Made by a program: the position numbers and the translations under genes
Notes under the pieces: generated by a model
Told to the model about the DNA's origin: nothing
The model's database searches: none
Seen by the model: the letters and a program-made list of their open reading frames with translations, nothing else
Assembly (NCBI GenBank): GCA_044892525.1
Contig: JBJFYX010000024.1
Coordinates: 248,001-312,000, forward strand
Origin: Schmidtea polychroa
Taxonomy: Eukaryota
Direction of reading: 5' to 3'
DNA: 64,000 bases
In this document: in pieces, positions 6,548 to 38,067 of the stretch
How positions within the stretch are numbered: the stretch's first letter is position 1
Layout: each line of letters opens with the position of its first letter

Positions 6548-6605
6548 TTTTTCATTAAATACATTATTTGCAGCAAAAGGCTTAAATTATCATTTTATTG
6601 GTTTA

Positions 6606-6687
<82 letters not shown>
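6606..6687. repeat. (AAT)n microsatellite
   Basis: Direct reading. Confidence 0.98.
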
Positions 6688-6690
<3 letters not shown>

Positions 6691-6929
6691 TACAAATCAA
6701 CTAAATAATAAATTAACCAAAATATTTTAACCCTATTATTAACAATAACAAATATCAATACCGACAACCAATAAAAGTAATTGATAATCAGTTTTACCTA
6801 ATAAATTGTAACCGATTGGCAGGTGGTGGAAAAAAGTTTTACAAATGAATTTTTATTTCATAATTAGTTATATTTTTTATTAATTCGTTTCACGATTTGT
6901 TGTGATTTCTTTGAAAATTAAAATTATTT

Positions 6930-7654
6930 CTCAAGAAACACTTAACGTAATTCAGGATTATATTTTTGACCCATTTTATTACAACTCTTTTAAGGCAACA
7001 GTTTTAAAATCTGAATTCGATGCTATTAAAAGTGAATTTGAAGAAAAATTAAATGCGATTCGTGAATATTATGAGTAAAAAGCTTCATAATTGTAAATAT
7101 TTTCGAACATTAATTTAGAAATAAAATAAGCGAAATTTCAGAATTTAATGTCAAACTATCTGAAAAGGAACCTACTAGACCACCAAGTGTATATCATAAA
7201 GATTGCTCTGTGAGCCCTATCTTTCCTTACAGATCTGTTCCAGGTAATACACGTTTAGAAAAACGAGAGATTCGGCAAGTTGATAATGTTAATGAAAATC
7301 ATTTCTCATCAAAAAGTCGTGATACATTATCCACTAGTGGGCCAGATGATCTAGTTTGTTTAAATTTTTAAGCATTTTAATGATTTATTAAAATTGATCA
7401 GAATGAAAATTTTAATACAACTTTTGATTTACCCGAGAAAACTAATTCTGCAAACAATTCAGTTTTCAAACCTAATTTACCTGAAGGTTTCCTTGACCGA
7501 GTATCATTTTTCTCTGAAAAATCAAATAAGTACAAAGAAGATTTGGCTAATAAAATCAAAACTGAAATTTCAAGAGTAATTGAAGATAAATTAACAGAAT
7601 TATATAAATTAAATTCTGATTTAACCGAAGAGGATGTTTCTCTGGCTCTTACCG
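6930..7654 (+). CDS. Internal exons of an unidentified spliced protein (coiled-coil-like)
   Basis: Frame is preserved across introns 7075-7118 and 7354-7401: ...KSEFEEKLNAIREYYE NKISEISEFNV...SGPDDL|NENFNTTFDLP...EEDVSLALT, then a GTATG donor at 7655. Start coordinate is approximate. Confidence 0.45.
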
Positions 7655-17802: not shown

Positions 17803-18487
17803 TTAAAAGTTTTGAAAAGGTACTGAAAAAGAAAAAATTAAAGTTCGATTAAAGTTCATGTTCGATACAATTGCTTCAAAATTGGGACTTTTTGATGTAA
17901 GAGCGATTTGAATACAGTCTTCGGCGTTTAATCGATTTCTGTTCTTCGTTTTTATGTTCATTAGAGTGGAAAAGCCTTGTTCGCACAAATATCTTGTTCC
18001 AAATGGCAGCAATTTTTTAACCGCCTCTTCATGTGCAATTTTGAAAGCCTTTGCAGCTTTTGACATCCAAAAAGACGACAGATTTGGTTTACTCTCAAAT
18101 TGAATACGTGCTTCAGTATTAGATCGAAGTTCAAGAATTGCTTCTGCCAAACCTGTTCTGGTATCATAGCAATTTCACATTTAAAAGGATCTACAATCCA
18201 ACTGACAGTACGTGTATCAAGATCTGAGAAGTAATCTGAAAACCGCTTTTTAAGTTTGATTGTACAATTGTATCCTTGATGTCAGCAAAAGTAATATTTT
18301 CACAATCTTCCAAAAACAAAGCTAACCTTGAAAAAGAAGCTATCTTGTTCTGTTCTACTTTCTGTCTCCAATATTGCAGCTTTAATCCAAACGCTGACAC
18401 TATTTCTCTCGCTCAAATGATATTAATTTTCTTCTTTGTTTAATATATTTATACTCTCAAATATGTCCGCTAAATATGCGAGATATG
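17803..18487 (-). pseudogene. hAT (Buster/Charlie-like) transposase, C-terminal half
   Basis: YLAYLADIF... and LLPFGTRYLCEQGFSTLMNIKTKNRNRL (dimerisation domain); joins 38068-38640 across the Gypsy insertion. Confidence 0.85.
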
Positions 18488-19008
18488 TGTTAGATGATGA
18501 GGGTAGGCCCATCACTACATTTACCCTAGACAAATACTATAGGACAGGGCCCAAAAAATATAGAGTGAACGTGTACGCCGAAGAGCGTAGGTAGATAGAT
18601 GTTCCAACAAGCAACCCAATTCCAGGCAACCCAATTCAATCCAAAAACAATCCAGTAATCCGAAAAGTGACTAAACATTATCGTCGAACAATTTTATCTT
18701 TTATTCCAATTGACAATTTGTGTAAATATTATTGACTAAACAATCTGTGCATATTTTATCTTTTATTACTATTTTATTTTCTGAATATTTATGTAGAATG
18801 CTGTATGATCAATATTTTATCGGGTGTATGTATTTAATAGATTTTATTAGTTAACCTTTTAATATAATCGTATACAAGGGAAAAATATTTTAATAATTTT
18901 TAATTCGATATTTAATAACAATAAATTTTAAATTAACTTTAAATTCGATATTTTCTAATAACGATTTCTTTAATAAACAGCTGAAAAAATTTTTAGAATT
19001 AATAAGTG
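18488..19008 (+). repeat. Gypsy 5' LTR, left part
   Basis: 18737-19008 matches 37259-37555; begins TGTTAGATGATGAGGG. Confidence 0.9.
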
Positions 19009-19928
19009 TGTTTAATTCGAGGTTCGGGTCTGTGTGCGCCTTTTACTATCCTTGTGTTGTTGGCTGTGGGCGCACACAGACGCATATAGTTGTGGGTGTG
19101 GTTTGGCTTTTTTCTATCGCGTCTGTGTGCGCGGTCTGGTTAGACCGATTCTTGTTGGTGTGCGCACACAGACGCGAGAAGTAGGTTTTGATTAATTGTT
19201 AATTTTTATATGATAAATGGTTTTTGGCAGAAATTCTGGATTTTTAATTCGAATTGATTTGTTTTAAATTGGTTTGTGATTGGTGGAAGTTTAAAAAGGG
19301 CTTTCGGTTCTGGAACAAGTTTCTTTGTTAAAATGGCGTTTATTTCATGGATGAAATATCATTTTAGTGATGATTCTGATAGCAAAATTGAGATTTGTGC
19401 CAATCCTGAAGATTTTGAGATGTTTTTAAGAAAAATTCCATCAAATATTAATTACCCTTCTGTATTGTCAAATAATCGGACAGCAAATTGTGAGTTTGCG
19501 CTCCTCGTGGTCAAATGTAATCTACTACAATCTTCTGTAGAAATGCCTTCTAATACAAAATTGTTTTGGAATTTATTAGATGATAACAAAATTCAATATA
19601 TTGCCTCATCTATGGTTGATGTTGACGGATCTATGATTTACAAGTTACGCAATATTGCGAGTCTCAATCCATCATGAGTTCAATTAGCAAAGGAAACGAG
19701 ATATTTATGCATTGTGGCTACAGGAAGAATTTCTTCTACTATAACGAGCAATGTGATAAAATCAAACTTAGACTTTATGAAATCGGATTATGACTTAAGT
19801 GATGATGTTTATGTAAATTATGATTTCGAACAGATCATTCAATGCTGTGAAATTTTGTTGCCACATAGAGCCGACTCCATCGAGTCTATTTCAAATAAAA
19901 TTGTTATTCGTTCAATTCGATTAATACA
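19009..19928 (+). repeat. BEL 5' LTR
   Basis: TGTTTAATT...ATTAATACA; TATA-like motif near 19206 and AATAAA at 19894. Confidence 0.97.
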
Positions 19929-19946
19929 TGGTAGCAGAGCGTGGTT
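19929..19946 (+). promoter_or_regulatory. Primer-binding site, initiator tRNA-Met type
   Basis: TGGTAGCAGAGCGTGGTT immediately after the LTR, followed by an 8-bp hairpin TTCCGGCT-AGCC-AGCCGGAA. Confidence 0.85.
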
Positions 19947-20277
19947 CCGGCTAGCCAGCCGGAACAAGGTAATTAATATGTATTATAAAATGTCTTTTTT
20001 GGTTTTATATATATTATGTAAATATTATGTGTATTATGTGTTTAATAATATTTTTGTAATTAATAATATTTTGGTAATTAATATGTATTATAAAAAATCT
20101 TGTTTGTTGTCACGCATATTATGTATATATTATAATACTTTTGTAAAATTAAACATCCTCCCTTCCCTACCGAGCGTGGGAAAGTGCTGCTATGGGCCCC
20201 AGCACTCTTTTAAAGGGGGAAGCCAGGGGAACAGGGTAAAGAACAAAGCTGAGTCAAGGGTGAGGGCGAGCGGGGTA

Positions 20278-22218
20278 ATGGGTTTTGAGTTGCGATGGGA
20301 AAGTCAAATATTTGTCAAAACTCTTACTGGTAAGACAATTGCTCTGGACGTTAAATGGAAGGACACAATTGAAAAGATAAAAGGAAAAATCCAGGACAAA
20401 GAAGGAATTCCGGAAAATTATCAAATGTTAGTATACGCAGGAAAGCAGTTAGAAAATAAAAGAAGATTGAATGATTATAGGATACAAGTAGGGTCGACAC
20501 TTCATTTGTCACTCAGGCTGTGCGGGGGCAATGATAAAGAGATTTTAGAAGAAGGACTGTGGAAAAAGAGAATGAAAAAAGGAAAATTAACGAGATTAAG
20601 AAACAAGATTCTCAATGATATAAATGGGAAGGATGTTAGCGAATGGTTGGCGGAATATGAAGATCAAAAGGAGAGTCTAGATGAAGAATTAGGGGATCTG
20701 AGAACAATCAGTAAAAAATTGCAAAGATTGGACATCACTGCAATCTTAGATAAAGACCTGCAAGAGATCGAGGAAAAACATCAAATAATTGGGGCATTGA
20801 TGGAAAGAAGAGCAAATCAATCTTTTATGGAAGAGAAGGAAAATGTGAATGATGATACCATCAAGAAGAATAATTCCGGGCATAAAAGAAAACTGGAAAG
20901 TCTACAGAAAATTACAATCCCTGTTTTTGAAGGCAAGATGAAAGAGTACGAACCATGGAAAGCAGCTTTTACTGCATGTGTTGACGAAGCGGAAGGTGAT
21001 GAGGTTGAAAAGATGTTTCACCTGCACAAGTACCTTCACGGAGAGCCATTAAAGTTAATTGAAAATCTTGGATATTCGGCAGAGGCTTATCAAATGGCAA
21101 AAGAGAAGTTGGATAGGCGATATGGTGGGGATGAAAGGATATATTTATCAATGTTAGAGGAGATGGAACAGTTCAGGCCAATTCGAGAAGGAGATTTGAA
21201 GGATCTAGACTCATTTGTTGGATTATTAGAAACGGTCACCGTGCGATTTAAATCCACTGGGAAAGAATCCGAGTTAAAGACTGGCTATCTTTTTCAAAAG
21301 TGTTTGGGCAAGTTAACGACGAATCTTGTGTATAAATGGAAAAAAGACAAAATAGAAAAGGAATTGCGGGAGACGATAGAGGATTTGAGAAGATGGATAC
21401 AACAAGAAGCAGAGATCCTAAGGTCCACTAACGAGGTTGTGTATGGGACTTAACCAAGCACCAGGGCTTATGATGGGTCAAGAGTAGAAGGGGTGTCTAG
21501 GGGAAGAGAAAGATTCAATCCTGGAGGTCGGACGCATTTTACGGGGCAACCAGATGGCAGAGTTAAAAGTGGAACAGTTATACAGGTGAATAACTCTAAC
21601 GGCTATAGATCAGATTGTGTACACTGTGGTGGTCAACATTACCTAGACCAATGTGACAAGTTCAAGCAACTCACAATTCCTAAAAGGAAGAAAGTCATCG
21701 AAGAAAAGAAACTGTGCAGGAATTGCTTCAAAAGAAATCACATGGCCAAGGAATGTCGTAAAGAATCTTTCTGCAAGGTTACCGGATGTAAGCAAAGGCA
21801 CAACGAATTATTACATGAAAGACAAATTAGTGAGGAGAGTGAAAAAGGTAACAACACGATGCTGACCCAGAAAGGGATGAACGAAAAAAACCTAAGACCT
21901 TACCTTAGTTTAAGAACAATTCCAATCTACCTGGAAAATGGGAGCAAGAAAATAAAAGTCAATGCACTGTTAGATGATGCAAGCTCAGTAAGCTACATCA
22001 ATCTAAGAATTTTAAAGGAGCTTGGGTTAAAAGGGGTGGAAAAGAGGACACCGATAGGGGTTATCGGAGGTAATGTCCAACAAATGATGGCTACTCCAGT
22101 GACCATGAAGTTAATTAGTAATGACGGCCGATTGACGAAAAACTTCAACGCACTGGCCGTAACAAATATCACGGGAGAAATGAAGGTAGTAAATTGGGCC
22201 AGAGAAAAACATAAGTGA
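20278..22218 (+). pseudogene. Ubiquitin-Gag-protease part of the BEL polyprotein (stop at 21451)
   Basis: Ubiquitin domain 20305-20529 ([10 protein letters not shown]...LRLCGG), BEL Gag core ([20 protein letters not shown]), triple Cys-His knuckle, and aspartic protease ALLDDASS. Confidence 0.92.
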
Positions 22219-22245
22219 ACTCACCTGAAGGGCATCCATTTTCCG

Positions 22246-25200
22246 ATGCTAGACGAGAGACAGGCAGTTGAAGTGTTAATTGGCGCGGATTATTTTACGC
22301 TTCAACGAGCACTCAAAGAAATCGATGGTAAGTTGGATGAACCGATTGCCCGTTTAACGCCACTTGGCTGGACATGTGTGGGAAGAACCTCGGTGGGAAG
22401 AACTTGGAACCATCAAAGCAATTTCATACGAACGTTCTTCGGTAATGGCGAGGATTTGCAACGACAGATGGAGCGATTTTGGGAAATTGATGATAGCGGC
22501 TTAAAGGAAAATATATTTGCAGCGAAAGACCAAGCGATTTATGAGAAAACCAAATCTGAGATGAAGAAAGTAGACGGACATTTCGAGGTAAAAGTGCCAT
22601 GGAAAGAGTCACCAACAGCTTTGCTCAATAGTGAAAAAATGGCAGAAAGTCGACTGCGAAGTTTGGACAAGAGGCTTGAAAAGGAAGACTTACGAACTGA
22701 GTATCAGGATATTTTGAATGGTTACCTGAAAAAAGATTATATAAGTATTGTAAAAGAGAAAATGATGCCTGGAGATTCGGAATGGATATTACCACACTTT
22801 CCCGTGGTTAGAAGAGATAAGGACACCACGAAAGTGCGTATTGTGTTTGATGCGGCAGCCAGGTGTAATGGGGTGGGACTTAATGATATGGTGGAAGTTG
22901 GCCCAAAATTACAAAATGAAGTTTTTGATATTTTAATTCGTTTTCGTCGATTTTCCGTAGCTGTTGTTTGTGATATAGCAGAAATGTATCTGCAAATAAG
23001 AATGGCTCTTGAAGACAGGAAATATCATCGGTTTTTATGGTCAACTGGGGGGAAAATTATTAAGTATGAGTTTAATCGGTTAGTGTTTGGTCTTAATGCA
23101 TCTCCATTCCTTGCCCAGCTAGTCGCGCAAGAGAATGCAAAGAAATTTGAAAAGGACTACCCAAAAGTGACAGAATCTATTTGCAAGTCTACGTATATGG
23201 ACGACACCATGGACTCTGTTGATTCTGAAGAAGAAGGAATGAGGCTGAAAGAGGGGCTAGAAACAGTTTGGGGCAATGCCGGAATGCGGCCTAGAAAATG
23301 GCTGTCCAACTCGGAAAGAATTATGGCGACAATCCCAATTGAAGAACGAGCTAAAACACTGAATATTGAAAAGGAAACGACAATGGCCGTCAAGACCCTA
23401 GGTTTGAAATGGTACTCGGAAGACGATGAATTTAGTTTTCAAGTAGATCTGCCGAATGAGGAATGTTTATCGAAAAGAAAGGTATTGAGCATAGTGGCAA
23501 GAATCTTTGATCCATTGGGACTGGTAGGCCCATTCATAATCATAGGGAAAAAGATTATTCAGAAGTTGTGGTTGTCAGGGCTTGATTGGGACGAAAAGCT
23601 ACCTCCAAAGTTGAATAAAGAAATACACAAGTGGGTAGAGGACACAAATAATCTCGGAGATCTGCGAATTGCGAGATGTTTAAGGACTCAAATGAAAAAT
23701 GAATGGCAATTACATGTCTTCTCCGATGCGTCAAGCACCGCATATGGGTCAGCTATATATCTACGGGAAGAAACTATGGTGGGACCTAAAAGTGTGTTAA
23801 TTGCGTCAAGGGCAAAGGTAGCTCCAGTGCAAATTATAAGTATACCAAGGTTGGAAGTAATGGCCGCGTGTACTGGAGTTAAATTAGCAAGACGGGTTTC
23901 AGAAGTGCTCGGGAAACCGATGAGTGAGATATGGTTCTGGTCCGATAGTAAAGATGTAATACATTGGGTTCGAAATTATTCGAGACTATTCAAGCCATTC
24001 GTAGCTAATCGAATTGGGTTCATTCAAGAAATGACCAAACCTGGGCAATGGCATTATGTTCCAACAAGTGAAAATCCATCGGATTTGATCACAAGAGGAT
24101 TATCGGCATCGGATTTGATAAACAGCACCATGTGGTGGGAGGGACCGAAATTTCTACTAGAACCAAAAGGAAATTGGCCAGCGACGGAGTTAAACCAATC
24201 CAATGTAACAAAGGAGTTTGGAAAGGGAATAACAATGATGGCGTGTGTAGAGGGGCAAAGACGAATAGGGAACACGGACTGTTTCAAAGTAGAAACCTTT
24301 TCCTCATGGCAGAGATTGATCAGGGTGCGGGCCTGGGTGGAGCGATTTATTTTGAACACGAGAACGACACAGTCCCAAAGAACCACAGGGCAACTGACAA
24401 CTGAGGAGCTTAAAAGAATGGAACTCAATGTAATTAAAGGAGAGCAGGCGAAGTTTTTCTCTGAGGACCTGGCACGACTTATCAAGAATGAAAGGGTAGA
24501 TATCAGAAGCCGTTTGTTAAAGTTGACACCAGTTTTAGATGAGATGACTGTGTTACGAAATAATAGCCGCATAATTCATGCAAAGAATTTACCATGGGAG
24601 ACAAAATATCCAATAATTCTATCGGACAAGAGTTGGGTCACCAGACTAATCATCAAAGATTGCCATGAAAGTTTGAGCCATTATGCAGGAACTCAACATG
24701 TCTTAAGTGTGTTGAACGAAAAATATTGGATTTTGAAGGCCAAAGTAATGATCAAACAATGTGAGACAGATTGCGGAATGTGTAGAAAAAGAAAAGCTAA
24801 AGGAATGAGTCAAATAATGGCACCGTTACCGGCGTTCAGGGTTTCAGAACCTTTTAGAGCCTTTGTTCACTCGGCAGTAGATTTTGCAGGACCGTTTGAA
24901 ACTAAAGTAGGCAGAGGAAAGGTGAGAAATAAAAGGTACATTTGCCTATTCGTATGTTTAAAGTCACGGGCGGTGCATATTGAAATGGCATATGGGTTGG
25001 ACACAGACTCATTCATTCGAGCGTTTATGAGGTTTGCAGCGAGGCGGGGGATGCCAAAATTGATGATCTCAGACAATGGCACAAATTTCATAGGCGCCAC
25101 TTCTACAGTAAAGAATTTTGTAATCGACAACTATAAAACTCAAAGAGAGTTGTCGAAGCATCAATGTAGTTGGATCTTCAATCCTCCATCAGCACCGCAT

Positions 25201-25806
25201 TTTGGGGGAGTTTTTGAGTCCATGATCAAATCGGCAAAGCGAGCTATGAATGCCATACAGACAAGTGCAGATGTGACCGACGAAGAATTGGGAAATGTTT
25301 TGACAAGGGCTGAAATGTTGATAAATTCTCGGCCCTTAGTGGTTCAGGCAGTAGACAGTAAGGAAGACGCTGTGCTAACTCCAAATCATTTATTAATTGC
25401 CGGTTGGAAAGGAGAAGCTGTGGAAAATATAGAAGGGAAGAAAATGTCATGTACGGTGTTTCGGTGGAGACGAATTCAGGAGTTAACCGAGCACTTCTGG
25501 CGGCGATGGATGAAAGAATTGGTCCCGTGCTGGCGGCAAAGGGCGAAATGGAATAAGATAGAAGATGATGTCAAGACAGGGTCAACAGTGTGGGTTTTAG
25601 ACAAAAGGAATAAGTATGGGAAGTGGCCAATGGGGAGAGTAATCGAAGTGATACCGGGAGAAGACGGAAAGCTACGCGTGATGAGGATAAAATGTGAAGG
25701 AAAGGAGGTATTAAGATGCATGTCTAAATTATGCTTGATCACAAAAGAAGAAGTTAATGGGGATGTGAGATTGACACCAAAGTGTCAAGGGGGGGAGGAT
25801 GTTTAA
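22246..25806 (+). CDS. pol: BEL Pol: RT, RNase H and integrase (in frame with Gag; separated by TGA at 22216, probably formerly TGG)
   Basis: DIAEMYLQI, YMDD, LHVFSDAS, H-H-C-C, DFAGP, SDNGTNF, GGVFES and WRRIQELTEHFWRRW. Confidence 0.97.
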   Translation: MLDERQAVEVLIGADYFTLQRALKEIDGKLDEPIARLTPLGWTCVGRTSVGRTWNHQSNFIRTFFGNGEDLQRQMERFWEIDDSGLKENIFAAKDQAIYEKTKSEMKKVDGHFEVKVPWKESPTALLNSEKMAESRLRSLDKRLEKEDLRTEYQDILNGYLKKDYISIVKEKMMPGDSEWILPHFPVVRRDKDTTKVRIVFDAAARCNGVGLNDMVEVGPKLQNEVFDILIRFRRFSVAVVCDIAEMYLQIRMALEDRKYHRFLWSTGGKIIKYEFNRLVFGLNASPFLAQLVAQENAKKFEKDYPKVTESICKSTYMDDTMDSVDSEEEGMRLKEGLETVWGNAGMRPRKWLSNSERIMATIPIEERAKTLNIEKETTMAVKTLGLKWYSEDDEFSFQVDLPNEECLSKRKVLSIVARIFDPLGLVGPFIIIGKKIIQKLWLSGLDWDEKLPPKLNKEIHKWVEDTNNLGDLRIARCLRTQMKNEWQLHVFSDASSTAYGSAIYLREETMVGPKSVLIASRAKVAPVQIISIPRLEVMAACTGVKLARRVSEVLGKPMSEIWFWSDSKDVIHWVRNYSRLFKPFVANRIGFIQEMTKPGQWHYVPTSENPSDLITRGLSASDLINSTMWWEGPKFLLEPKGNWPATELNQSNVTKEFGKGITMMACVEGQRRIGNTDCFKVETFSSWQRLIRVRAWVERFILNTRTTQSQRTTGQLTTEELKRMELNVIKGEQAKFFSEDLARLIKNERVDIRSRLLKLTPVLDEMTVLRNNSRIIHAKNLPWETKYPIILSDKSWVTRLIIKDCHESLSHYAGTQHVLSVLNEKYWILKAKVMIKQCETDCGMCRKRKAKGMSQIMAPLPAFRVSEPFRAFVHSAVDFAGPFETKVGRGKVRNKRYICLFVCLKSRAVHIEMAYGLDTDSFIRAFMRFAARRGMPKLMISDNGTNFIGATSTVKNFVIDNYKTQRELSKHQCSWIFNPPSAPHFGGVFESMIKSAKRAMNAIQTSADVTDEELGNVLTRAEMLINSRPLVVQAVDSKEDAVLTPNHLLIAGWKGEAVENIEGKKMSCTVFRWRRIQELTEHFWRRWMKELVPCWRQRAKWNKIEDDVKTGSTVWVLDKRNKYGKWPMGRVIEVIPGEDGKLRVMRIKCEGKEVLRCMSKLCLITKEEVNGDVRLTPKCQGGEDV
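25787..25799 (+). promoter_or_regulatory. BEL polypurine tract
   Basis: A/G-only run (AAGG...GGAGGA) directly before the 3' LTR. Confidence 0.85.
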
Positions 25807-26719
25807 TTTGAGGTTCGGGTCTGTGTGCGCCTTTTACTATCCTTGTGTTGTTGGCTGTGGGCGCACACAGACGCATATAGTTGTGGGTGTGGTTTGGCTT
25901 TTTTCTATCGCGTCTGTGTGCGCGGTCTGGTTAGACCGATTCTTGTTGGTGTGCGCACACAGACGCGAGAAGTAGGTTTTGATTAATTGTTAATTTTTAT
26001 ATGATAAATGGTTTTTGGCAGAAATTCTGGATTTTTAATTCGAATTGATTTGTTTTAAATTGGTTTGTGATTGGTGGAAGTTTAAAAAGGGCTTTCGGTT
26101 CTGGAACAAGTTCCTTTGTTAAAATGGCGTTTATTTCATGGATGAAATATCATTTTAGTGATGATTCTGATAGCAAAATTGAGATTTGTGCCAATCCTGA
26201 AGATTTTGAGATGTTTTTAAGAAACATTCCATCAAATATTAATTACCCTTCTGTATTGTCAAATAATCGGACAGCAAATTGTGAGTTTGCGCTCCTCGTG
26301 GTCAAATGTAATCTACTACAATCTTCTGAAGAAATGCCTTCTAATACAAAATTGTTTTGGAATTTATTAGATGATAACAAAATTCAATATATTGCCTCAT
26401 CTATGGTTGATGTTGACGGATCTATGATTTACAAGTTACGCAATATTGCGAGTCTCAATCCATCAGGAGTTCAATTAGCAAAGGAAACGAGATATTTATG
26501 CATTGTGGCTACAGGAAGAATTTCTTCTACTATAACGAGCGATGTGATAAAATCAAACTTAGACTTTATGAAATCGGATTATGACTTAAGTGATGATGTT
26601 TATGTAAATTATGATTTCGAACAGATCATTCAATGCTGTGAAATTTTGTTGCCACATAGAGCCGACTCCATCGAGTCTATTTCAAATAAAATTGTTATTC
26701 GTTCAATTCGATTAATTCA
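25800..26719 (+). repeat. BEL 3' LTR, containing an uninterrupted ORF of about 200 codons from ATG 26124
   Basis: Direct repeat of 19009-19928; ORF track 26067..26747. Confidence 0.97.
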
Positions 26720-27236
26720 AAGTGTCTTAAGAACACTTTTGAAATAAAATAGAAAACTCAAAAATTACTAATTATTTAAAGTATGAAAATAAAACTCAAA
26801 ATAATAATTATAAGTATTATTAAAATATGCAAATAAAATATTAAATTAATTCTTGAAATAACAGCTGCCCTAAAAATTTGTATAAATAGCGACAAAAAAT
26901 TAGTTTTAGCCGCCCAAAAATCTTGCGAAGAAATTCTTATTCAAAGGTTAATCCTTCGAATAAATTAATAATTGAATCAGCACAGAAAGATTCACACACA
27001 AAAGAAACTTGCTAAGATATAACACGCATATATAACAAATAACAAAAACATATTTTTTTCACACGCATTTCAGTGGAGGATATTGATAGATAATTGTCAA
27101 CCCTTTTAGAATTGGAAAAATTGTGTAGATTTGGTAATTTTTGATCATAATAAATTTTTATATACACATATTTGTTCTGTTTTGATATATATAAGAACCA
27201 GCAAGTTGAGTGTTCCCGAATATCGAGACCTCAACA
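26720..27236 (+). repeat. Gypsy 5' LTR, right part
   Basis: Matches about 37551-38067 with 3 substitutions seen; ends GAGACCTCAACA. Confidence 0.95.
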
Positions 27237-27238
27237 TT

Positions 27239-27256
27239 TGGTGCCGCGAACCGGGA
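27239..27256 (+). promoter_or_regulatory. Gypsy primer-binding site (tRNA-Phe/His-like)
   Basis: TGGTGCCGCGAACCGGGA two bases after the LTR end; the cognate tRNA is uncertain. Confidence 0.75.
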
Positions 27257-27475
27257 CTTTAAAATCAATTATTGTTATTCACAATTTGGGGGATAGGAAT
27301 TGAGATCAGAGGGTTATAGTATTTTATATTGGGAAAATATATTTATAAAAACAATATCATTGATCAATTTTAAATAAATAAATTCAGTTTTGAAAATTAT
27401 TAAATAATTTATAAAGATAAAATAGATAATTAACCCGAAATAGTTTACAATCTCAGAAATAGAATAGTCTATAGG

Positions 27476-30106
27476 ATGAATAATAATAATAATTACATAA
27501 AAATTTTACCAGTAGAACCATATAGAGGAGAGCCTGAAAAGTTCGTTGATTTTTTCACTGAGATCGCTCAGTATGCAGAAGCTTGTGGTTGGACACCTGA
27601 TGAGTTAAAAATGAGAATCCCACTATATCTAAAAGGTTATGCGTTACAGGCATACAATAACTTAGAATGTAAAGGAAATAATTTTGATCAGCTCGTAAGA
27701 TATCTGAGAGCAGAAATAGTAATTGATAGCGATTTACAAAAGATAAATGTTCAAAAATTTAGAAACAGATACCAAGGTACTAGAGAATCAGTTGGTGAGT
27801 ATGTATATACGATTACGGAGTTAGCGAAAAAGGCATTTGGTGCAGGCGAGCACACAGCAAAATTAATTGAGGATCAGTTTTGGAATGGTATACAAAAATA
27901 ATATGGTAATTTAAATGAATTAGTTCATAAAGCTAAGCGTATAGAAGCAATACAACGAGATCGGTTTAGTTCACATGTAGATGCATTAGAAATCCAAAAA
28001 CCCATAGAGGTAAAATCTGAGTTGGGTAAGTCTGATGACAACATCCCCTGGGAGGAGATGAAACAACTATATTTGAACTTTGTAAAAAATAGACGAAGGG
28101 TAAGCCCGAGTCCGGATAGAAGTCAATCGCCTGAAAACAGGAGGAGATTTGATAATGCGAGAAACAGAAACTTTGAGAGTAGAAACAATAGAAATACTTT
28201 TGATTGAGACAATCGTTATGAATATAATAGAAACAATTATACGAGAGATAATCGAGTCGATTTTAGTAGAAATAATTTGAGAAATAATAAATATGATAGA
28301 AGTAATAGATATGATAATAGAGATAATACAAATGATTTGAGACGTAGACAGACAAGTCCATATAGACAGAATTCATATAGAGAAAGGCGAAGAAGCCCTT
28401 ATAATAATGATGGTAGAGATAAAGTAAATTTTAATGGACAGATCAAATGTTACAATTGCCAAAAATATGGTCACTTAGCTAAAGTATGTAATAATGCGCG
28501 AAGCGAATCGCCCAATAGAGTGAGATTCAAAAATGAGCCTGAGATAAAACAGATTAATAGTGCTGAGTTGATATCAGCTAATGATGAAATAAACAGTTTG
28601 AGAGAGGAATTAAAAGAATTTAAAACTCAATATGGGAGACTTATTGAGAGAAAGTTAGAAATGTCATTAAACGAGTTTCAGTGTTTCACCAATGATGTAG
28701 ATATAGATAATGATGAGTTTCGTGAAGCAAGAGAAGCGGATGAAAAATTTCTTGCAGAAGCAAATAGATGTAAAGAATTAAAAGAGGAATTAAAAGAGAC
28801 ATTACAAAAATGGCCTTATGATGATAATGAGACATTGCGTATAATAAATAGAGTTCAAGTCGAAGGAATTGACTTAGAATATTTGAGAAATTTGATACCA
28901 CTAATGGTAAAGAGACAAAATATGACAAGAGTATTTGAATTAGAAATAGAATTGAAAGAAATGATAAAATGTTATGGTGAATTTGTGAGAAAAAATCAGA
29001 AATTACATGAGTCATTGAATATAACTATTGAGGCAAAGGACCTTTCGAGATTATTTATGCGTAGTACAGGGGTACATGTTTGCACAAAAGTGAATAAAGT
29101 AAAACAGATGGCCAGAGCCAATTGGCCCGAGAAATTGGGAGATAATGATAAAATGAAACTGTATTTTAACGGGGTAGAAATGATGAATAACGAATACATA
29201 ATAGACTATGGGGTAAATGTTATTGATAACAATATTATTTCGGCCGTAATAGAAAGGCAAGAAAGTAAACAAATTGATACACCAACTCCATCAGTAGAAT
29301 TGAGTATAAACGATGAAAATGACTACGACAAATTATTTAGATTATGGGATGCTTCTTCAGGAGGAGCAATGAAGTCACCAACAGCTAGCGATGAAATCTT
29401 TAAACCTATTGATACTAAATATGATAATTTACATGAGACAATAGAAAAAATTGCGAAACAAGCAAATATGCAGGATGCAGAGACGATGAGACGAGGTAGA
29501 GGAAGGCCTCGAAAATCTGAAATAGCCGAAAAGTCAGATGACAGAAAGGCAGCAGAGCGTTTAAGAGATATTGCAAATAATATGAGACAGGAAGTCCCAA
29601 AAAATCAGGATAATGACAAAGATATAAAGATGATAACAGAGTTAGTTAAAGCAATGAATATGAGACGATTTCCGGAAGCAAAACCATCAGCGTTAATGGA
29701 AAATATAGTTAAAAAGATTAAATTAATGGAAAAAGAGATTAGAGAATTGAGTGCAGAGGAAGCGAATGAAGAGACAGTGTTAAAAATATTATTTACAACA
29801 GGAGTTAATCGGGATAAAGTGATTACGGCGATGGCATATCTAATAGCAAGATACAAGAAACTTTTGCGATTGAATCCAAAGAATCAGATAGAAAATATGA
29901 TATATGATAAATTAAAAATAGACGCTATGCCATGGATAAAATTAAAGGGAGGATGGAAAATACTGTATGATGAGAGTCTAATCGAAAGTGTTAAGGAAAG
30001 CGTAGGAGACAATATTAATGTAGAAATAGATGATACGGAGGAGACAGTAAAAAATCTAGTAAATAAAACAACTATGGGACCAAGTCAAAAAGAAAGGAAG
30101 TCGACA
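27476..30106 (+). pseudogene. gag: Gypsy Gag with CCHC knuckle plus long accessory spacer (UBL-like domain, AT-hook); in-frame stops at 27899 and 28205
   Basis: PYRGEPEKFVDFF...YLKGYALQAY capsid region, RS/RN-rich linker, CYNCQKYGHLAKVC and RRGRGRPRKS, all in one frame. Confidence 0.85.
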
Positions 30107-31230
30107 ATGTCAATAGTAATTATAGTAATAACGTTATTGTTAGATCTGATAAAAGGAAATAATGCGATCATAGCATATGACTGTCAGAATCCCAAGTGGG
30201 GACAGAAATATTCATTATTAGATGTAGAAAATTGCCCAGAGGCCAATCCAACAAAACTAATTGTTGCAGATCCAAAGATTTTTCACATATATCAAGAGTC
30301 TGACTTCATTCACACTGAGGCAGGAGAATGTATCGTTAAATATTCAGAGGAAAGTTTTGTATGTAATAAAATAGCGAGAACAATATTAACTCCAACATGG
30401 GCACCAGAAGCGATAATAATAGCACCAATCGAATGTGAAAATGCATTTAAGACAAAAAAGATAAAAACGCCGGATGGATTTGAATTAAATGCTCAGGTAG
30501 GAGCACGAGTAAGACAATTAGTAAATGTCGTCGGATGGTCATCAACAGGAGGATATTGTGAAGGAGGAACGTATAAAATATGGGGGCATGTAGCAGACAA
30601 TATTGTAGTAAGACGACAATATTACATTGAATTAAGGAAATTCAAGGCGTCATTTGATAGTTCATCAAAGAAAATGATGACACATAAGTTCTGTACATTA
30701 GATGAGACAAGCTGTGATACAGGTGAGTCAAGGATCATATACAAAGTAAATAAATACGAATGAGAATTAACTGAACTGTAAAAAAAGTTAGAATTTCAGG
30801 AAGTCAACGAAATGGATAACAATGGGATGTATACGAGAGAGGCGATAGAGAGCGCCAGAAAACATATGCTATTTCCTCATGAAAAAGAAAAAGTTCTTTC
30901 TATTATGGTAAACAAAATCATCGAGAATAGTTATGGAGGGAATTACAACTTTGATGTATTATTATCAAAAGAGCACTTCAAGAAAGTTGTATATAGAGTA
31001 TTATACAGCATATGGGGATATTTTGCGATTCTCGGAAATACGTTTTCCACTATTTTAGGTATATATTATACAGTAGCACTACTGAAAATGATTTGTTCAT
31101 CATTAGTTTCATTAAGACAACTGAGACAAGTTTTTGGTAATTCATATAAAATGATGGCATGTTTATGTCCATTCATAGCGAAATATCTGATCACTGCGAA
31201 GCACGACAAAGAAATCAAACGGATGAAAAG
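30107..31230 (+). pseudogene. Chuvirus-like envelope glycoprotein, internally deleted, in frame between Gag and protease
   Basis: Signal-like MSIVIIVITLLLDLIKG, then AIIAYDC...YSLLDVENC...CEGG...CTLDETSCDTG; C-terminal GMYTREAI...MLFPHEKEKVL...WGYFAILGNTFSTILGIYYTVALLKMI hydrophobic block; stops at 30761 and 30779. Confidence 0.75.
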
Positions 31231-31479
31231 TCGAAGGGAAGAGGGTGAAATAATGATCACCAATGAGAGAGATGACGAGGCAAACAAATCAGAAAATATT
31301 GAGCAACCACATATTGGGTTATATGATAATCAAAGAGAACAATTGACAGAATTGAGAAATAATATTGAAATTAGAATCCCAGGTGAAAATGGTAATTGTC
31401 ATTGTATTCCAAGGAAAACTTATGGATGTTACGGGTTAGAACTTGACGATTTATTAGAAGGGTTAAATGAAGCAAGACC

Positions 31480-34400
31480 TAAACTAAAAATAGTGATAAA
31501 CAATACGATAATAAAGGCATTATGTGACACAGGAGCAGCAGCTTCTATGATTCGTGAAGATCAGTTAACCGAAAATCAAAAGAAAAATATCGTGATTACA
31601 AGAGATAGAGTAATTTCATTATCATCACACTACATACCATTAAAAGGCGACATCGAATTAACAGTCCACTTTTCAGATCAAGTGATTGAACATGTCTTCA
31701 AGGTAGTAGCAGAATACAAATGCATGTGTGTCCTTGGGATAGACATACTCAAGAAGTTAAAAAACTGTGTAATCGATTTAACGGATAGTACAGTTAAACG
31801 GAAAGCAATATATCAAGACGCAAGATTTACTGAGGTAATTGTATTAGAGACATTCGAACTAGAATATCAAAGTGATCATATAATTCCAGTAAAAGTTAAT
31901 GTTAAAAGTGAGGACACTTTCATTTTCGAGCCTGAAACGGGAATATCACGAAATCATAATGTAATGTTAACAGACGAGTGTGTAATTCCAAATAATGGGA
32001 TAATTCCAATAAGAATCGCGAATTACGAAAGTAAAAATTCATAAAGGTACAAAATTGGGAAAGTTGTTCAAAGGTGAATTAGAGCAAACATTTGAAGTAT
32101 GTGAGATGTCGATGACGAGTGATGTCAGTGAAGGAATGGTCGAACAGAGTAGAACGAATAATATTAAATTTTATGATAAAATTAAAATAAATAATAATTA
32201 TCTAAACGAAAAACAACAGCTACAACTACAAATTTTACTTGACGAATATAGTGATGTTTTTGCAAAACACGAATTTGATTTAGGAGATACTGATATTATC
32301 AAACATGTAATTGAAACGGGGAATGCTAGACCAATAAAACAGAGACCCTATAGTGTACCATATAAACTGAGGGAAGAGATAAAACGACAAATTAAAGAAT
32401 TAAAAGAGGCAGGCGTAATAAAACAAAGTTTTTCACAATGGGCATCTCCTATTGTACCAGTTAGAAAGAAAGACGGGGAAATTCGAATGTGTATTGATTA
32501 TCGTAAATTAAACGATGTAACAGTAAAAGATTCTTACCCATTCCCGAGAGCACAAGAACAATATGATAAACTTAGGGATACTAAGTATTTCACAGTAATA
32601 GATGCAAATAAAGGTTACATGCAAATTCAAATGGAAGAGGGGGATGCGGAAAAAACTGCTTTTGTGATTGAGGATGGTTTATACGAATATACAAGATTAC
32701 CGTTTAAGTTAACTAATGCGCCAGCAACATTTCAACGTTTAATGAACACAGTATTAGTAGATGTACAACATTGCGCAGTATATATGGATGATATATTAAT
32801 TTCATCAAAAACATTTGAGGAACATCTAAAAGATATAGCTAATGTACTAGAAAGATTAAGAAAAGCTAAAATCAAAATAAAACCCACTAAATGTAAATGG
32901 GCAGAACCTTCAGCATTATTTTTAGGACACATAGTTACAGTAGATGGTATAATACCTAATCCCGATAAAATTGAAGTAGTTAAAAAATTTCCAGTTCCAA
33001 AAACATTACAACAAGTACAGGAATTTTTAGGTCTCACAGGATATTATCGTAAATTCATACAAGATTATGCAAAAATAGCAGCACCACTAATTGAATTAAC
33101 AAAAGGAGTCAAAACAAAGGGAGAGAGTAAGGGAGTGTTAATAGTACAGGAGATTAACGATAAAATTAACAAGCCACAAAAGAAATGGAAAGACGAACAT
33201 CAAAAAGCTTTTGATCAACTAAAAGAAAAATTAATAACAGCACCGATACTAAGGTACCCAGATTTTAAAAAACAGTTTATTGTCATGACAGACGCCAGCG
33301 GGAAGGCCGTAGGGGCAGTCTTAGGACAAGAAGAGGAAAAGGGTAAAGATTATGTAATAGGTTAAGCAAGCAAAACATTAAAAGGAGCACAGATTAAGTA
33401 CTCAACAATTGAGAAAGAGTGTTATGCTATAGTTTTTGCATTAAAACAATTTAAGCCATACATATATAAAACTGAAGTAGTAATTAGAACAGACCATAAG
33501 CCATTAGAAGGGTTATGGAAACATAAAGATACATCCAGCAGATTGTTAAAGTGGGCAATGAAAATACAAGACATGCACATAAAGATTGTATACAAACCAG
33601 GCAGAATAAACAGGAATGCAGATGCATTATCACGAATTCCAGAGTTGGGAGCACTAGAAGTTTTTGCATTAGTAACTGAAAAACCAATAGAAATGTATGA
33701 GGAACAAATGAAAGACCCAGAACTCTTCAAAATAAGAGAGGAAATAAAAAAGGGAACTAACCAAAAGTATAAAATCTGTAAGAAGTTAATTGTTATTGAG
33801 GATTTTAGCGGTAAACAATTAATAGTAGTACCACAAAGATTAAGACAAATTCTTCTATTACAATATCACGATGGTGCTCTAGGAGGTCATTTATCAAGTA
33901 GGAAAACAGCAAGCAGGTTGATGCAAAAATATTATTGGGACGATTTAAAAAAAGATGTTAAGAGATAGTGTAATGCATGCACAATATGCGCAACTAGAAA
34001 AAATACAGGAACAAAGACCTTTACATCCAATCCCAGCTACAACATCACCAATGGAACTGTGCGCAATGGATTTTTTGTGTAAACTACCCACAACAATTAA
34101 CGGGAATAAACACACTAGTTTTTAGCGATTACTTCACAAAATGGGCAGAGGCATTTCCTACTAAAGATGAAACAGCAGAAACAGTGGCAAAATTACTTGT
34201 AGAAAAAATAATCTTTAAAATCGGTACACCGAGAAAACTATTAACAGATAAAGGGAAAAATTTCATGAGCGAAACTATAAAAAGAGTAGCTAACATATTT
34301 AACATGCATAAAATAAACACTGATGGCTTAGTGGAAAGATTCAATGGGACATTGCTAAGTAGATTAGCCGTGTTTGTGGGAAAAAACCAAAATGATTGGG

Positions 34401-34912
34401 ATGAATACGTTAATCAATGCACATACATTCATAATATCACACCAAATGAGACAACGGGATATTCACCATATTTTTTAATGTTCTTAAGAGAGCCTGCAAC
34501 ACCGATTGATACAATTTTTGAACCTCGAGTATCACAATATTTAGATGCGCCAGATTATGTAACATTAATGCAAGAGAGACTACAAGATGTATACAAAGTT
34601 ACAAATTTAAAAGTTAAATTTAGACAAGAACAGTATAAGGCAGATTACGATAAAAATAGCAAACCTCATAATTTTAAAGTGGGAGATAAGGTTAGACTTA
34701 TGTCTCCACAAGTAGGTAAAGGTAAAACAACTAAATTAGCAAGACCATTTAAAGGACCATACGAGGTAGTAAAAGTAGTACATGAAAACCTGCATTTACA
34801 AAAACATAAAAATGAAGATCCTATAATAGTACATGTTAATAGATGCAAACTAGCAGAAACAGAGTTAGTAGAAAAACCACCTCACAAATATGGATTACGA
34901 TCACAAAAGGCA
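31480..34912 (+). pseudogene. pol: Gypsy protease-RT-RNase H-integrase, with several stops and frameshifts
   Basis: LCDTGA, WASPIVPVRKKDGEIRMCIDYRKLN, YMDD, TDAS, TDHKPL, HDGALGGH, LTDKGKNF, GLVERFN and FKGPY. Confidence 0.95.
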
Positions 34913-35743
34913 CTGATGATGGCAGCGACATTTTTAACAATTATAGGGTTGTGTAAATCAACTGAAGTAGAAAACAAGACCATACACTCAGTAGAATACA
35001 TGGCTGAAGATATTTTAATCAATATTTCACCGTATAAAATTAGAGTATATAACTTAAATAAATCACCAATAAGAGACTTGTATCTGGAAACTGGGGATAA
35101 TATACCCAAACTTATGAAAAAAATTGAAAATAGATCAACTAATGAATTTGAAAGAGGAGATAGTGTCGAATTCAGAGATCTACAACCCAACACCAATTAC
35201 ACACTTTGTGCACAATGGAATACATTAATTGACACATCACAGATAAGGTGCAAAAGAATAAAAACTACTAAAATAAACAGATTTAGAATAAGAAAACCAA
35301 AAAGAAAAAAGATATCAACAACCAGAAAAACAACTACTGTAAATTCAACACCCACACATCCTATATCACAAACGATAACGAATATATATAGAAAAACGAC
35401 ATTTAAAGCGATTAGACAAATATATAAAAAATTAATAATGAAAAATCCAAGACAGTCTGATAGGTAACTGATAAAATTACCTACAGGAAAACCGATAGTT
35501 ATAAATAACTGGAACGAATTACAAGTCTTTCAAAAGAAAACAAGTAAACCACAATGGCCCTTTTATGTAATAGCTACAAGTGTATTATTCGCGATTTTAG
35601 CAATTGTCACTAGTGTACAAGTTTATAAAAAGTACAGGTGGAAAAGGCAGCGGTATCGGCACCGACTGTTCAAGGAAGCACCAGGGCATTTTCACTTGGA
35701 CAAATATATCCCTGGACAATATACTCTGTCCACACTGGTATAA
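34913..35743 (+). pseudogene. Type I membrane protein module fused after integrase: signal-like segment, FN3-like domain, Thr-rich stalk, TM and basic tail (stop at 35465)
   Basis: LMMAATFLTIIGLCKS; FRDLQPNTNYTLCAQW; STTRKTTTVNSTPT; WPFYVIATSVLFAILAIVTSVQVY KKYRWKRQR; same frame as integrase. Confidence 0.6.
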
Positions 35744-37253
35744 TAACTTAAAAAAGTTTAATTATGTAAATTGGTCAATGATATATGATAAAAGTATATA
35801 TATTTATATAACTGCGTATAAGGTTAAACCTCAAATGCGCAACAAGCATAAATATTCATTGTTTGTTTTTAGAGTAATAATAAGAAGCCTATTCAGCCAA
35901 TTGAAGCAACTCAATCAAATCGATCTCCTAATAAACCAATCGAATCAGCCTAATCAAATAACCCAAATCAGTCAATCAAATCAATCCAATCAAGATAATA
36001 ATCATCTCTACCAAATCAATCTTCATACAAACAAATCAATGCACCCACATACGTCAGTTCACATGCATTCTCAAAGAACAAAACCTCAGCGAAATCCTGA
36101 AACTCAGAAAATAAGGCAATATGTGCCGATGTTACAGAAACACTACCACAGTTTCTATAAAAACCTGCAAAACAAGATCAGCACAGATGGCACTCCCATT
36201 ACTATTAGAAGCTTCCCCAACCAAGTATGCATTCCTAATGATATGAAAATCGAGATAGAAGAAAGGGAATTGCATCTCATCAAATTTAACGAAGCAAGAA
36301 GAGTCAAATTAAGAGAATTAATCGGGGCATATGACAGATTCCCCAATGCAGAGGAAGCTGCAAGAACTAGAAAGAAAGTACCCCATAGAATTTTATTTCA
36401 TATCACAAAAACAGAGGTAGCAATATGCCAACAGAGAATACCAATAATCACCACGAGCAATTGCACCATAACAATAAAAACTACAAAAAATGATCGAAGT
36501 GTCCCAAACGACTACAATGAATTGATAGTCCAAATGAACAGCCTACCCTGTGTCATAGCGATCGAAATATTATACATACCCACTATCCCAAATCCATTTC
36601 AGCAGTTGGAACTCATCAAGTCAAACATTTATATGCATGGAGATTTCATCAGAAAGAAAATGTCATTTACCCACAAAGAATTATCCACGGCAGAGAGACA
36701 TCATCTGATAATGTTTGTAGATGCAAATTTTGTATGCGACATCAACAATAACTTAAGGCCAGTGGAGGTCAGCATACGGAATTTTAAAGGTGTAACAATA
36801 TTTGATGAGAAAATTACACCTAGAACGAAAATCCTACATTATTATCCAGAGAAGACAAAGGCCAACAAGGAAAATATCATCGGAAATAAAGATGAATACG
36901 AAGCACTGGTCGAAATCCAACAGTTACTTTGCGGTAAAATAGTCGTAGAATTTGACATCATCGGGAAACTCAAAGCTCTCACATTAGATCTGTTGAATGT
37001 TATGGGAGTTAGAGAAATGTCGGAAGATATATTTATGTGCTCGTTCGTCAAAAACGTTGCGCCACACAAGATAAAATTGTCCAACCTGGCATACCAGGTA
37101 ATCAGACATCACAGAAGGTGGGACAAAGATAAACGTATCAATAGAATGATACGAGAACCAGAACCATTCCCAGCATGGCAAACCACAATGATCGTCAAAG
37201 TGATATACGCAATCGTAGAAAATCAATGGGAAGAAGTTGTTAAATGGGATTGA
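35604..37253 (+). CDS. Gypsy ORF3: Q/N-rich N-terminus and C-terminal DEDDh (REX4/ISG20-like) exonuclease-fold domain with degenerate catalytic residues
   Basis: 549-codon open frame (true start uncertain); IMFVDANFV...VEVSIRNFKGVTIFDEKITP...LVEIQQLLCGKIVVEFDI...LKAL parallels the REX4 family pattern. Confidence 0.6.
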   Translation: MSLVYKFIKSTGGKGSGIGTDCSRKHQGIFTWTNISLDNILCPHWYNNLKKFNYVNWSMIYDKSIYIYITAYKVKPQMRNKHKYSLFVFRVIIRSLFSQLKQLNQIDLLINQSNQPNQITQISQSNQSNQDNNHLYQINLHTNKSMHPHTSVHMHSQRTKPQRNPETQKIRQYVPMLQKHYHSFYKNLQNKISTDGTPITIRSFPNQVCIPNDMKIEIEERELHLIKFNEARRVKLRELIGAYDRFPNAEEAARTRKKVPHRILFHITKTEVAICQQRIPIITTSNCTITIKTTKNDRSVPNDYNELIVQMNSLPCVIAIEILYIPTIPNPFQQLELIKSNIYMHGDFIRKKMSFTHKELSTAERHHLIMFVDANFVCDINNNLRPVEVSIRNFKGVTIFDEKITPRTKILHYYPEKTKANKENIIGNKDEYEALVEIQQLLCGKIVVEFDIIGKLKALTLDLLNVMGVREMSEDIFMCSFVKNVAPHKIKLSNLAYQVIRHHRRWDKDKRINRMIREPEPFPAWQTTMIVKVIYAIVENQWEEVVKWD

Positions 37254-38067
37254 GAAGCCTAAACAATCTGTGCATATTTTATCTTTTATTACTATTTTAT
37301 TTTCTGAATATTTATGTAGAATGCTGTATGATCAATATTTTATCGGGTGTATGTATTTAATAGATTTTATTAGTTAACCTTTTAATATAATCGTATACAA
37401 GGGGAAAATATTTTAATAATTTTTAATTCGATATTTAATAACAATAAATTTTAAATTAACTTTAAATTCGATATTTTCTAATAACGATTTCTTTAATAAA
37501 CAGCTGAAAAATTTTATTCATAAACAGCTGAAAAAATTTTTAGAATTAATAAGTGTCTTAAGAACACTTTTGAAATAAAATAGAAAACTCAAAAATTACT
37601 AATTATTTAAAGTATGAAAATAAAACTCAAAATAATAATTATAAGTATTATTAAAATATGCAAATAAAATATTAAATTAATTCTTGAAATAACAGCTGCC
37701 CTAAAAATTTGTATAAATAGCGACAAAAAATTAGTTTTAGCCGCCCAAAAATCTTGCGAAGAAATTCTTATTCAAAGGTTAATCCTTCGAATAAATTAAT
37801 AATTGAATCAGCACAGAAAGATTCACACACTAAAGAAACTTGCTAAGATATAACACGCATATATAACAAATAACAAATACATATTTTTTTCACACGCATT
37901 TCAGTGGAGGATATTGATAGATAATTGTCAGCCCTTTTAGAATTGGAAAAATTGTGTAGATTTGGTAATTTTTGATCATAATAAATTTTTATATACACAT
38001 ATTTGTTCTGTTTTGATATATATAAGAACCAGCAAGTTGAGTGTTCCCGAATATCGAGACCTCAACA
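37238..38067 (+). repeat. Gypsy 3' LTR, lacking about 230 bp present at the start of the 5' LTR and carrying a 25-bp duplication
   Basis: Purine run GGGAAGAAG then TGTTA at 37238; homology to the 5' LTR starts at 37259. Confidence 0.85.

Follow-up and report, generated by a model that had tools for sequence, protein, structure and literature searches.

A BEL/Pao retrotransposon whose protein-coding frame opens inside its own long terminal repeat (LTR) has been identified in a 64,000-nucleotide (nt) stretch of the Schmidtea polychroa genome (contig JBJFYX010000024.1, positions 248,001 to 312,000 of the forward strand), which was analysed at its full length and is referred to here as the window. 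The element occupies positions 19009-26719 (about 7.7 kb; LTR comparison and Pfam matches), and its frame continues from the LTR through the primer-binding site (PBS) into ubiquitin, Gag and Pol. Judging from comparison with the genome, the LTR part of this frame encodes the C-terminal portion of a host protein and was recently captured as spliced mRNA; comparison among copies indicates that the content of the slot is replaceable, with unrelated host pieces carried on one backbone. The explanation that we consider probable is a polyprotein that would start in the LTR, carry host cargo filtered by reading frame, and be cut at ubiquitin by host enzymes, freeing Gag.

One frame from the LTR into Pol

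The frame from 19333 to 25806 comprises 2157 codons and is interrupted solely by stops at 19675, 21451 and 22216. An earlier inspection of these letters without database searches (the sequence-only reading) had proposed such a frame, repairable to about 2157 amino acids; both its course and its length hold, and the frame is retained across the family. The first stop is present in the 5' LTR alone, while the 3' LTR holds 198 open codons from the ATG at 26124 to the LTR end, close to the 200 that had been claimed, and its frame continues into the flanking DNA. The other two stops were seen only in the window copy and one near-identical duplicate, L001 (53 and 27 copies cover these positions, respectively), which points to decay after insertion. 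This duplicate (G000:C2:12170251-12177961) is 99.97% identical to the window copy and shares all three stops; the window contig may duplicate that chromosome region. Unbroken frames occur in natural copies: L004 and L006, which have the same LTR open reading frame (ORF) as the window copy, run from the LTR far into Pol or to its end over 2121 and 2077 codons, and L009, L010 and L041, with another LTR ORF, run from the LTR to Pol over 2189 codons. The LTR-to-Pol frame is real. When sequences were shuffled, none of 20000 was stop-free over the LTR ORF and 1 of 20000 over 19930-20277, in agreement with the earlier remark that the AT-rich stretch after the PBS lacks stops.

The assignment to BEL/Pao rests on direct TG...CA LTRs, a target-site duplication within the 4-6 nt range, a PBS, a polypurine tract, the domain order Gag-protease (PR)-reverse transcriptase (RT)-RNase H (RH)-integrase (IN) with Pao-type profiles, and a single Gag-Pol frame, as seen in the natural copies of 2189 unbroken codons. 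Pfam matches above cut-off were obtained for ubiquitin, DUF1759 (4e-13), RVT_1 (5e-10), Peptidase_A17 (5e-45) and DUF5641 (1e-22), and those for the protease, the zinc knuckle and H2C2 were below their curated cut-offs. The window copy is of the autonomous type. The coordinates are collected in Table 1.

Table 1. Parts of the element in the window, with the evidence for each
Feature	Position	Strand	Evidence or remark
Target-site duplication, 5 nt	left 19004..19008, right 26720-26724	+	sequence
5' LTR, 920 nt, TG...CA	19009..19928	+	7 differences from the 3' LTR
Constant LTR head, two hairpins	19009..19178	+	96% between subfamilies A and B; predicted promoter carrier
Variable T/G-rich leader, two upstream ATGs, TATA-like motif at 19206	19179..19332	+	locus comparison
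ATG opening the long frame, five codons upstream of the host-derived part	19333..19335	+	sequence
Cargo A, 3' part of a host coding sequence in spliced form	19348..19900	+	six host exons; genome search
AATAAA, predicted poly(A) signal, 35 nt ahead of the LTR end	19894..19899	+	also shared sequence at the 3' capture junction
PBS, read through in frame	19929..19946	+	18/18 nt complementary to tRNA-Met(CAT) 3' end plus CCA
5' splice-site-like motif AAG/GTA, candidate	19966..19974	+	conserved at 48/60 sites
Linker without stops, differing in length among copies; AT-rich part followed by a GC-rich part; ATG in frame at 20278	19947..20301	+	frame analysis, locus comparison
Ubiquitin unit without Met1, Gly-Gly end	20302..20529	+	69% identity to polyubiquitin repeats
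Gag: DUF1759, zinc knuckles	20530..21830	+	Pfam; stop at 21451
Protease, RT, RNase H (Peptidase_A17), integrase (H2C2, DUF5641)	21900..25806	+	Pfam; stop at 22216
Polypurine tract	25790..25799	+	sequence
3' LTR, 920 nt, second copy of cargo A, open 26124-26717, without a stop of its own	25800..26719	+	sequence

Host origin of the LTR reading frame

A genome search with the LTR ORF gave 82 matches, among them five pieces dispersed over G000:C1:217.007-217.017 Mb. The source consists of six exons (G000:C1:217007003-217016512) that, when joined, correspond to window positions 19348-19900 (26139-26691 in the 3' LTR) with 15 differences in 553 nt, that is, 97% identity. The LTR lacks all five GT..AG introns of the host gene (3479, 3428, 46, 42 and 1962 nt), and the captured piece, which we call cargo A, does not include the stop codon of the host. 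In all four contig sets compared, whose RNA status is our guess, host exon sequence instead of LTR sequence stands ahead of 19348, and one contig of 4726 nt, with the same guessed status, spans 19348-19906 without gaps. Two joints were found among the matches to the sets guessed to be RNA, neither of them GT-AG, and such contigs cannot show start, level or absence. Since the six-exon source has lost its introns in the LTR and host sequence continues ahead of 19348, what the sequence-only reading had described as a dedicated LTR domain of 200 amino acids is better described as a captured host C-terminus, which is recent, is replaced in relatives and is less constrained than Gag and Pol. At the 3' junction, 11 of 12 nt are common to the constant tail of the family, a candidate for the microsimilarity known at the switch points of LTR-mediated retrocopies.

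The identity of the host protein was sought in several ways. Cargo A gave no Pfam match, no relative among 43 candidates and no match in the PDB; exons near its host locus gave nothing above cut-off. The best ESM Atlas scores, 0.83 for cargo A and 0.89 for a nearby exon, are leads only. Six matches among 1.84 billion representatives were rejected as repeat-rich bacterial-type proteins aligned by short stretches. A resemblance of the host gene to nucleoside diphosphate kinase (NDK), noted by eye, was also discarded: no PF00334/NDK-repeat match falls at C1:217.0 Mb among the 29 matches listed, and the local profile gave an E value of 0.59. The structure prediction proposed earlier gave a predicted local distance difference test (pLDDT) score of 33 in single-sequence AlphaFold, too low for a fold search.

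Other cargoes in the same slot

The second subfamily, B, has a backbone that is 98-99% identical to that of subfamily A over element positions 885-6961 and shares its first 170 LTR nt. In place of LTR positions 171-884 it has four pieces of exon from a different gene at C1:240.78 Mb (94-100% identical), again in frame, with 2189 codons unbroken and three introns lost; the exons of this host gene have no Pfam match above cut-off. Two neighbouring stretches of this parent gene (C1:240.781-240.785 Mb) have been captured, and they differ in age: the upstream one is found in L063 and L080 (93-96%), the other in L010 (94-100%).

The genome contains 359 exact matches to the CA end plus PBS, and the control search gave 0. 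We sampled 60 of these sites, the first listed on C1 that had not already been examined, skipping one that lay inside the stretch of another. At least 100 open codons stand directly upstream, in the frame of the PBS and Gag, at 41 sites, as compared with 0 and 1 in the other two frames and 4 of 12000 shuffles; the antisense frames reach this length at 0, 2 and 2 sites. When the sites are collapsed to LTR-tail types, 18 of 34 have the long upstream ORF. It begins within a verified LTR at 23 of the 25 sites that have a second LTR in view. Pol within 8 kb is full at 7 sites, partial at 7 and missing at 46, so that most family members are non-autonomous.

A Pfam scan of 34 LTR ORFs (32 from the 60 sites and two others) gave matches in 27, including proteasome subunit, EAP30, DSPc, TCP-1, Ras, Adaptin_N, HSP70 and RING. 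The cargoes are mosaics of proteasome, ESCRT, chaperonin, phosphatase, coatomer and further host pieces, and in-frame fusions between them are frequent, such as EAP30-proteasome and Ras-TCP-1. The Adaptin_N cargo has a split-exon host source as well; in L037-L039, cargo A is located behind the remnant of a phosphatase cargo, and in the phosphatase cargoes of L061 and L078 the stretch with the catalytic motif has been deleted in frame, as seen against L056. As a separate observation, fragments of the family at L013 and L014, with LTR pieces in inverted orientation, lie next to a Polinton-like frame for DNA polymerase B; this arrangement occurs twice on C4, about 0.86 Mb apart.

Ubiquitin, linker and candidate splice site

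Ubiquitin is present at 52 of the 60 sites and in the PBS frame at 36 of these 52; at 22 of the 60, the frame is open from the LTR ORF through ubiquitin. A second lineage, whose Gag is about 31% identical, has the identical layout with two ubiquitin units, and the first unit invariably lacks Met1. Lineage-1 sites with ubiquitin end it in LCGG in 27 of 36 cases. Placed in frame and with Gly-Gly directly ahead of the downstream protein, this ubiquitin has the arrangement of a processing signal of the pestivirus type. When fusions of ubiquitin and Gag were sought in other organisms, polyubiquitins dominated the best 120 of 1134 matches and left the search uninformative.

The in-frame linkers between PBS and ubiquitin have 19 different lengths, from 158 to 395 nt; shared indels within them are in frame in six cases and frameshifting in two, and shared stops were not found (0). 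The AT-rich part (19969-20150) translates into a hydrophobic sequence rich in Tyr, Ile and Val in both lineages, a putative membrane anchor. The sequence-only reading had suggested that a 234-nt intron could be removed in frame from this region. Its ends are indeed present in the window copy, as GT at 19969 and an in-frame CAG ending at 20202, and the donor motif is widely conserved (Table 1); on the other hand, no retrocopy from which the intron had been removed was found among the 52 linkers or in a genome-wide search for its junction (0 matches). Splicing of unpackaged RNA across the linker may occur, or the candidate donor may instead suppress the poly(A) signal of the 5' LTR, by analogy with HIV-1 (human immunodeficiency virus 1), where a 5' splice donor has this effect. 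In lineage 2 (L039, L056, L085 and L104), a strong acceptor-like site was noted by eye before ubiquitin; it is out of frame with the donor, so that the predicted splicing there would yield a protein of cargo only.

Primer, LTR head and poly(A) signal

The PBS is complementary over 18 nt to the genome's own tRNA-Met(CAT), as given by tRNA genes found by pattern, and we take this tRNA to be the initiator from its recognised hallmarks. These genes form a 454-nt tandem array at L131 (G000:C1:79.33-79.39 Mb), with 1249 pattern matches genome-wide. In the linker, positions 20172-20205 contain a second stretch complementary to the priming tRNA-Met (anticodon-arm region, one extra base) together with a partial repeat of the PBS; with the PBS it could constitute a bipartite primer site as in Ty1 and Ty3.

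The LTR head has a predicted fold with a z score of -5.77, and none of 200 shuffles was equally stable. An AATAAA starts 20-45 nt ahead of the LTR end at 40 of the 60 sites (other 25-nt bins hold 0-10), nearly always at frame-keeping offsets and as part of the constant tail of the element. This conserved signal fits the long coding R region that had been proposed from the window alone. The TATA-like motif at 19206, cited in its favour, is dispensable and is not supported as the promoter: it lies within a 53-nt stretch deleted in 5 of 20 loci (L004, L005, L006, L019 and L020), and the region differs among subfamilies.

Selection on cargo, ubiquitin, Gag and Pol

Variants were classed against the commonest codon of each column as shared (at least two loci) or private, and the ratio of nonsynonymous to synonymous change (dN/dS) was calculated at kappa 1 and 3. 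For shared variants the values were 0.14 and 0.18 in Pol, 0.25 and 0.35 in Gag, 0.33 and 0.44 in ubiquitin, 0.53 and 0.70 in the linker, and 0.57 and 0.77 in cargo A, although shared variants may include host alleles, which would lower the cargo estimates. Cargo A has 9 synonymous and 19 other shared variants in 55 copies from 45 loci. Pooled cargo is under weaker constraint than Gag (P=0.009), and the shared and private variants of ubiquitin differ (P=0.003). Individual cargoes range from the proteasome pieces (0.48-0.60, with no shared stops against 2.4-3.0 expected) to EAP30 (0.93-1.27). In the comparison across copies that had been called for, the frame of the LTR ORF is kept across the family, cargo A is less constrained than Gag and Pol, and some of its copies are broken, as counted below.

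Proposed mechanism and its alternatives

The sequence evidence suggests the following scheme. Transcription would begin within the constant hairpin head or close to it and stop after AATAAA, so that most of the LTR would be R and the cargo would lie at the 5' end of the RNA; the polyprotein would likely be translated from an LTR-internal ATG. While the tRNA-Met primer is extended into the minus strand, RT would switch to a co-packaged host mRNA at a short shared sequence and then back, by which the captured piece would enter both LTRs. Because the first long frame opens upstream of the slot, just those captures that are sense, in frame and stop-free would yield Gag from their own RNA (or evade nonsense-mediated decay) and multiply. 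Ubiquitin would serve as processing site, cut after its end by host deubiquitinases, and Gag would therefore tolerate any leader. The cargo would be mainly a passenger filtered by frame, with any benefit more likely to lie in small-RNA camouflage than in a folded host protein. Transcription start, translation and cleavage are all predicted, and four steps of the scheme are inferred. It is the 41:0:1 frame count, together with the in-frame fusions, that carries the argument for a reading-frame filter; the small counts of stops and variants do not.

It is important to note that several observations weigh against this explanation. The sample comes from one chromosome and includes related copies; 19 of its 60 sites are without a long LTR ORF and 16 of the 52 ubiquitins are out of frame, both of which we read as probable decay. 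The tail of ubiquitin has diverged, which makes cleavage uncertain: Arg74 is replaced in lineage 1, including the window copy, and in lineage 2 both Arg72 and Arg74 are replaced in the final unit. At the 5' capture junction of cargo A, shared sequence is weak, and 13 of the 55 copies of cargo A have a stop or frameshift. Shared and private dN/dS of pooled cargo do not differ significantly (P=0.35); cargo A has two shared stops against 1.2-1.6 expected, and the depletion in pooled cargo (2 against 4.4-5.7) is not significant. Leaders hold 0-18 upstream ATGs, two of them in the window copy, and an in-frame ATG stands shortly before ubiquitin at 22 of 25 in-frame lineage-1 sites, at which Gag could start.

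The last two observations, together with the conserved donor, are what would speak for Gag-Pol being made from the internal ATG, or from a spliced RNA, with the LTR ORF as a by-product that is open simply because captured coding sequence is stop-free anyway. Random capture, however, would be expected in the Gag frame one third of the time and on either strand, which differs from the observed frame count; the AT-rich linker remains open, as its shared indels and missing shared stops indicate; no spliced retrocopy was found in the linkers or by the junction search; and the ATG before ubiquitin is present at 0 of 7 sites in lineage 2. We regard this origin of Gag-Pol as very improbable. Selection could also act on the RNA. 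Host-identical LTR sequence would make small-RNA silencing costly or redirect it to host genes, and the frame would be kept for RNA stability. The youth of the cargo (97% identity to the host), its turnover on one backbone and the capture of one host gene as two adjacent pieces of different age are consistent with this, and there are precedents in the TART-nxf2 and piwi/aub captures (PMC13534243) and in maize camouflage (PMC13317346). No known piRNA (PIWI-interacting RNA) pathway gene is present among the identified cargoes, however, and camouflage does not alone account for the purifying selection on ubiquitin or the strict sense orientation. We hold it to be unlikely as the full account; it is compatible with the LTR-start polyprotein, since it alters the reason for capture and not the anatomy.

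Cargo that is active as protein seems less probable still. Released cargo-ubiquitin fusions would act as decoys or dominant negatives for the proteasome alpha ring, ESCRT-II, CCT, Hsp70 and coatomer, and would in this way shield Gag or help particles to assemble. Most of the cargoes that could be named derive from proteins of proteostasis or trafficking, with no ribosomal protein, actin or tubulin piece in the 34 ORFs scanned, and the proteasome cargo has the low ratio and missing shared stops given above. Against this, the pieces are partial and their fusion points arbitrary, the catalytic stretch is deleted in some phosphatase cargoes, the EAP30 cargo evolves at a ratio near or above one, cargoes are interchangeable on one backbone, and host alleles may bias the estimates downward. 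A bolder version of the LTR-start polyprotein, to which we give a rather low probability, would make the LTR a standing expression cassette that samples host mRNAs into R, translates them as the head of a polyprotein cut at the captured ubiquitin, and has its cargo itself selected, as proteasome, ESCRT, chaperonin or coatomer decoys or as piRNA shields.

Comparison with known systems

Protein-coding sequence within an LTR is known from mouse mammary tumour virus sag and HIV nef, a likeness to the present element. They differ from it in being fixed genes of their viruses, situated in U3, whose expression comes from the 3' LTR and whose frames end within the LTR. In Ty1, few Gag codons lie in the LTR, and host cargo and ubiquitin are both missing. 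Ty1 also uses a tRNA-iMet primer and has its PBS within the Gag frame (PMC4974528), and a PBS read in frame is consequently not new by itself.

The BEL/Pao survey of de la Chaux and Wagner (2011, PMC3118150), whose Flow superfamily has two planarian families, describes elements like ours in their TG...CA LTRs, 5-nt duplication, one Gag-PR-RT-RH-IN frame, DUF1759, Peptidase_A17, DUF5641 and size of about 7.7 kb. The window element differs in that its frame opens about 600 nt deep in the LTR and in that host cargo and ubiquitin precede Gag; the word ubiquitin is absent from the main text of that survey. In planarian Burro elements, extra domains lie in the internal polyprotein (PMC6431247). LTR-mediated retroposition, as described by Tan et al. 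(2016, PMC5131818), and maize Bs1 share with our family the intron-less mRNA pieces, multi-gene mosaics, later amplification and, putatively, a short shared sequence at a junction. In all the Drosophila cases of that study the retrocopy replaces internal ORFs, whereas here the cargo is in both LTRs, in frame, at most sampled members, of elements able to keep a whole Gag-Pol with its internal ORFs complete.

In the cytopathic pestivirus BVDV (bovine viral diarrhoea virus) CP Rit, a host fragment and an N-terminally truncated ubiquitin stand in the polyprotein, and host hydrolases cleave it so that the downstream protein receives its authentic N-terminus (PMC8310069). Such insertions are sporadic and belong to an unrelated RNA virus, whereas the ubiquitin described here is fixed in two lineages and its cleavage is predicted only. 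TART and other Drosophila telomeric elements carry fragments of nxf2, piwi or aub, and host-gene capture is known to serve against silencing both there (PMC13534243) and in plants (PMC13317346, PMC7264820). These elements and the Pack-MULEs resemble ours in the repeated capture of host pieces into repeated or terminal element parts, but they are non-LTR or DNA elements with fragments of 140-235 bp that act via piRNAs and are not in frame with a polyprotein. Template-switch gene capture as such is known. The literature searched, to which Repbase and subscription journals do not belong, returned no description of in-frame LTR host cargo with ubiquitin-Gag, and the family may be catalogued in those sources.

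Neighbouring features in the window

The BEL element is inserted in the 5' LTR of a larger, unrelated LTR element (18736-27240 and 37259-38071), whose LTRs are 99% alike and which has its own primer-like site at 27240. This element has broken gag/pol-like frames (27434-37253) and looks Gypsy-like by eye. On the minus strand, broken frames at 17803-18443 resemble, by their motif, the C-terminus of a hAT transposase. A palindromic element of 690 nt with 188-nt arms, 97% complementary, lies at 5857-6547.

Significance

LTRs are usually regarded as non-coding, and captured genes usually cripple the element that takes them; here, at most of the family members sampled and under an apparent reading-frame filter, the capture lies inside the LTR of elements able to keep a complete Gag-Pol. 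The polyprotein of this retrotransposon also has a predicted site for processing at ubiquitin. In practice, work on this genome by RNA interference, read mapping, small-RNA analysis or gene annotation can be confounded by the hundreds of fragments that are nearly identical to one another and derive from housekeeping genes. If the cassette version were true, every solo LTR, of which there are hundreds, would also act as a promoter for a chimeric ORF with an open end, and together they would constitute a genome-wide engine of exon shuffling. The family offers a repeated natural test of why mobile elements take host genes: as passenger, as camouflage or as weapon.

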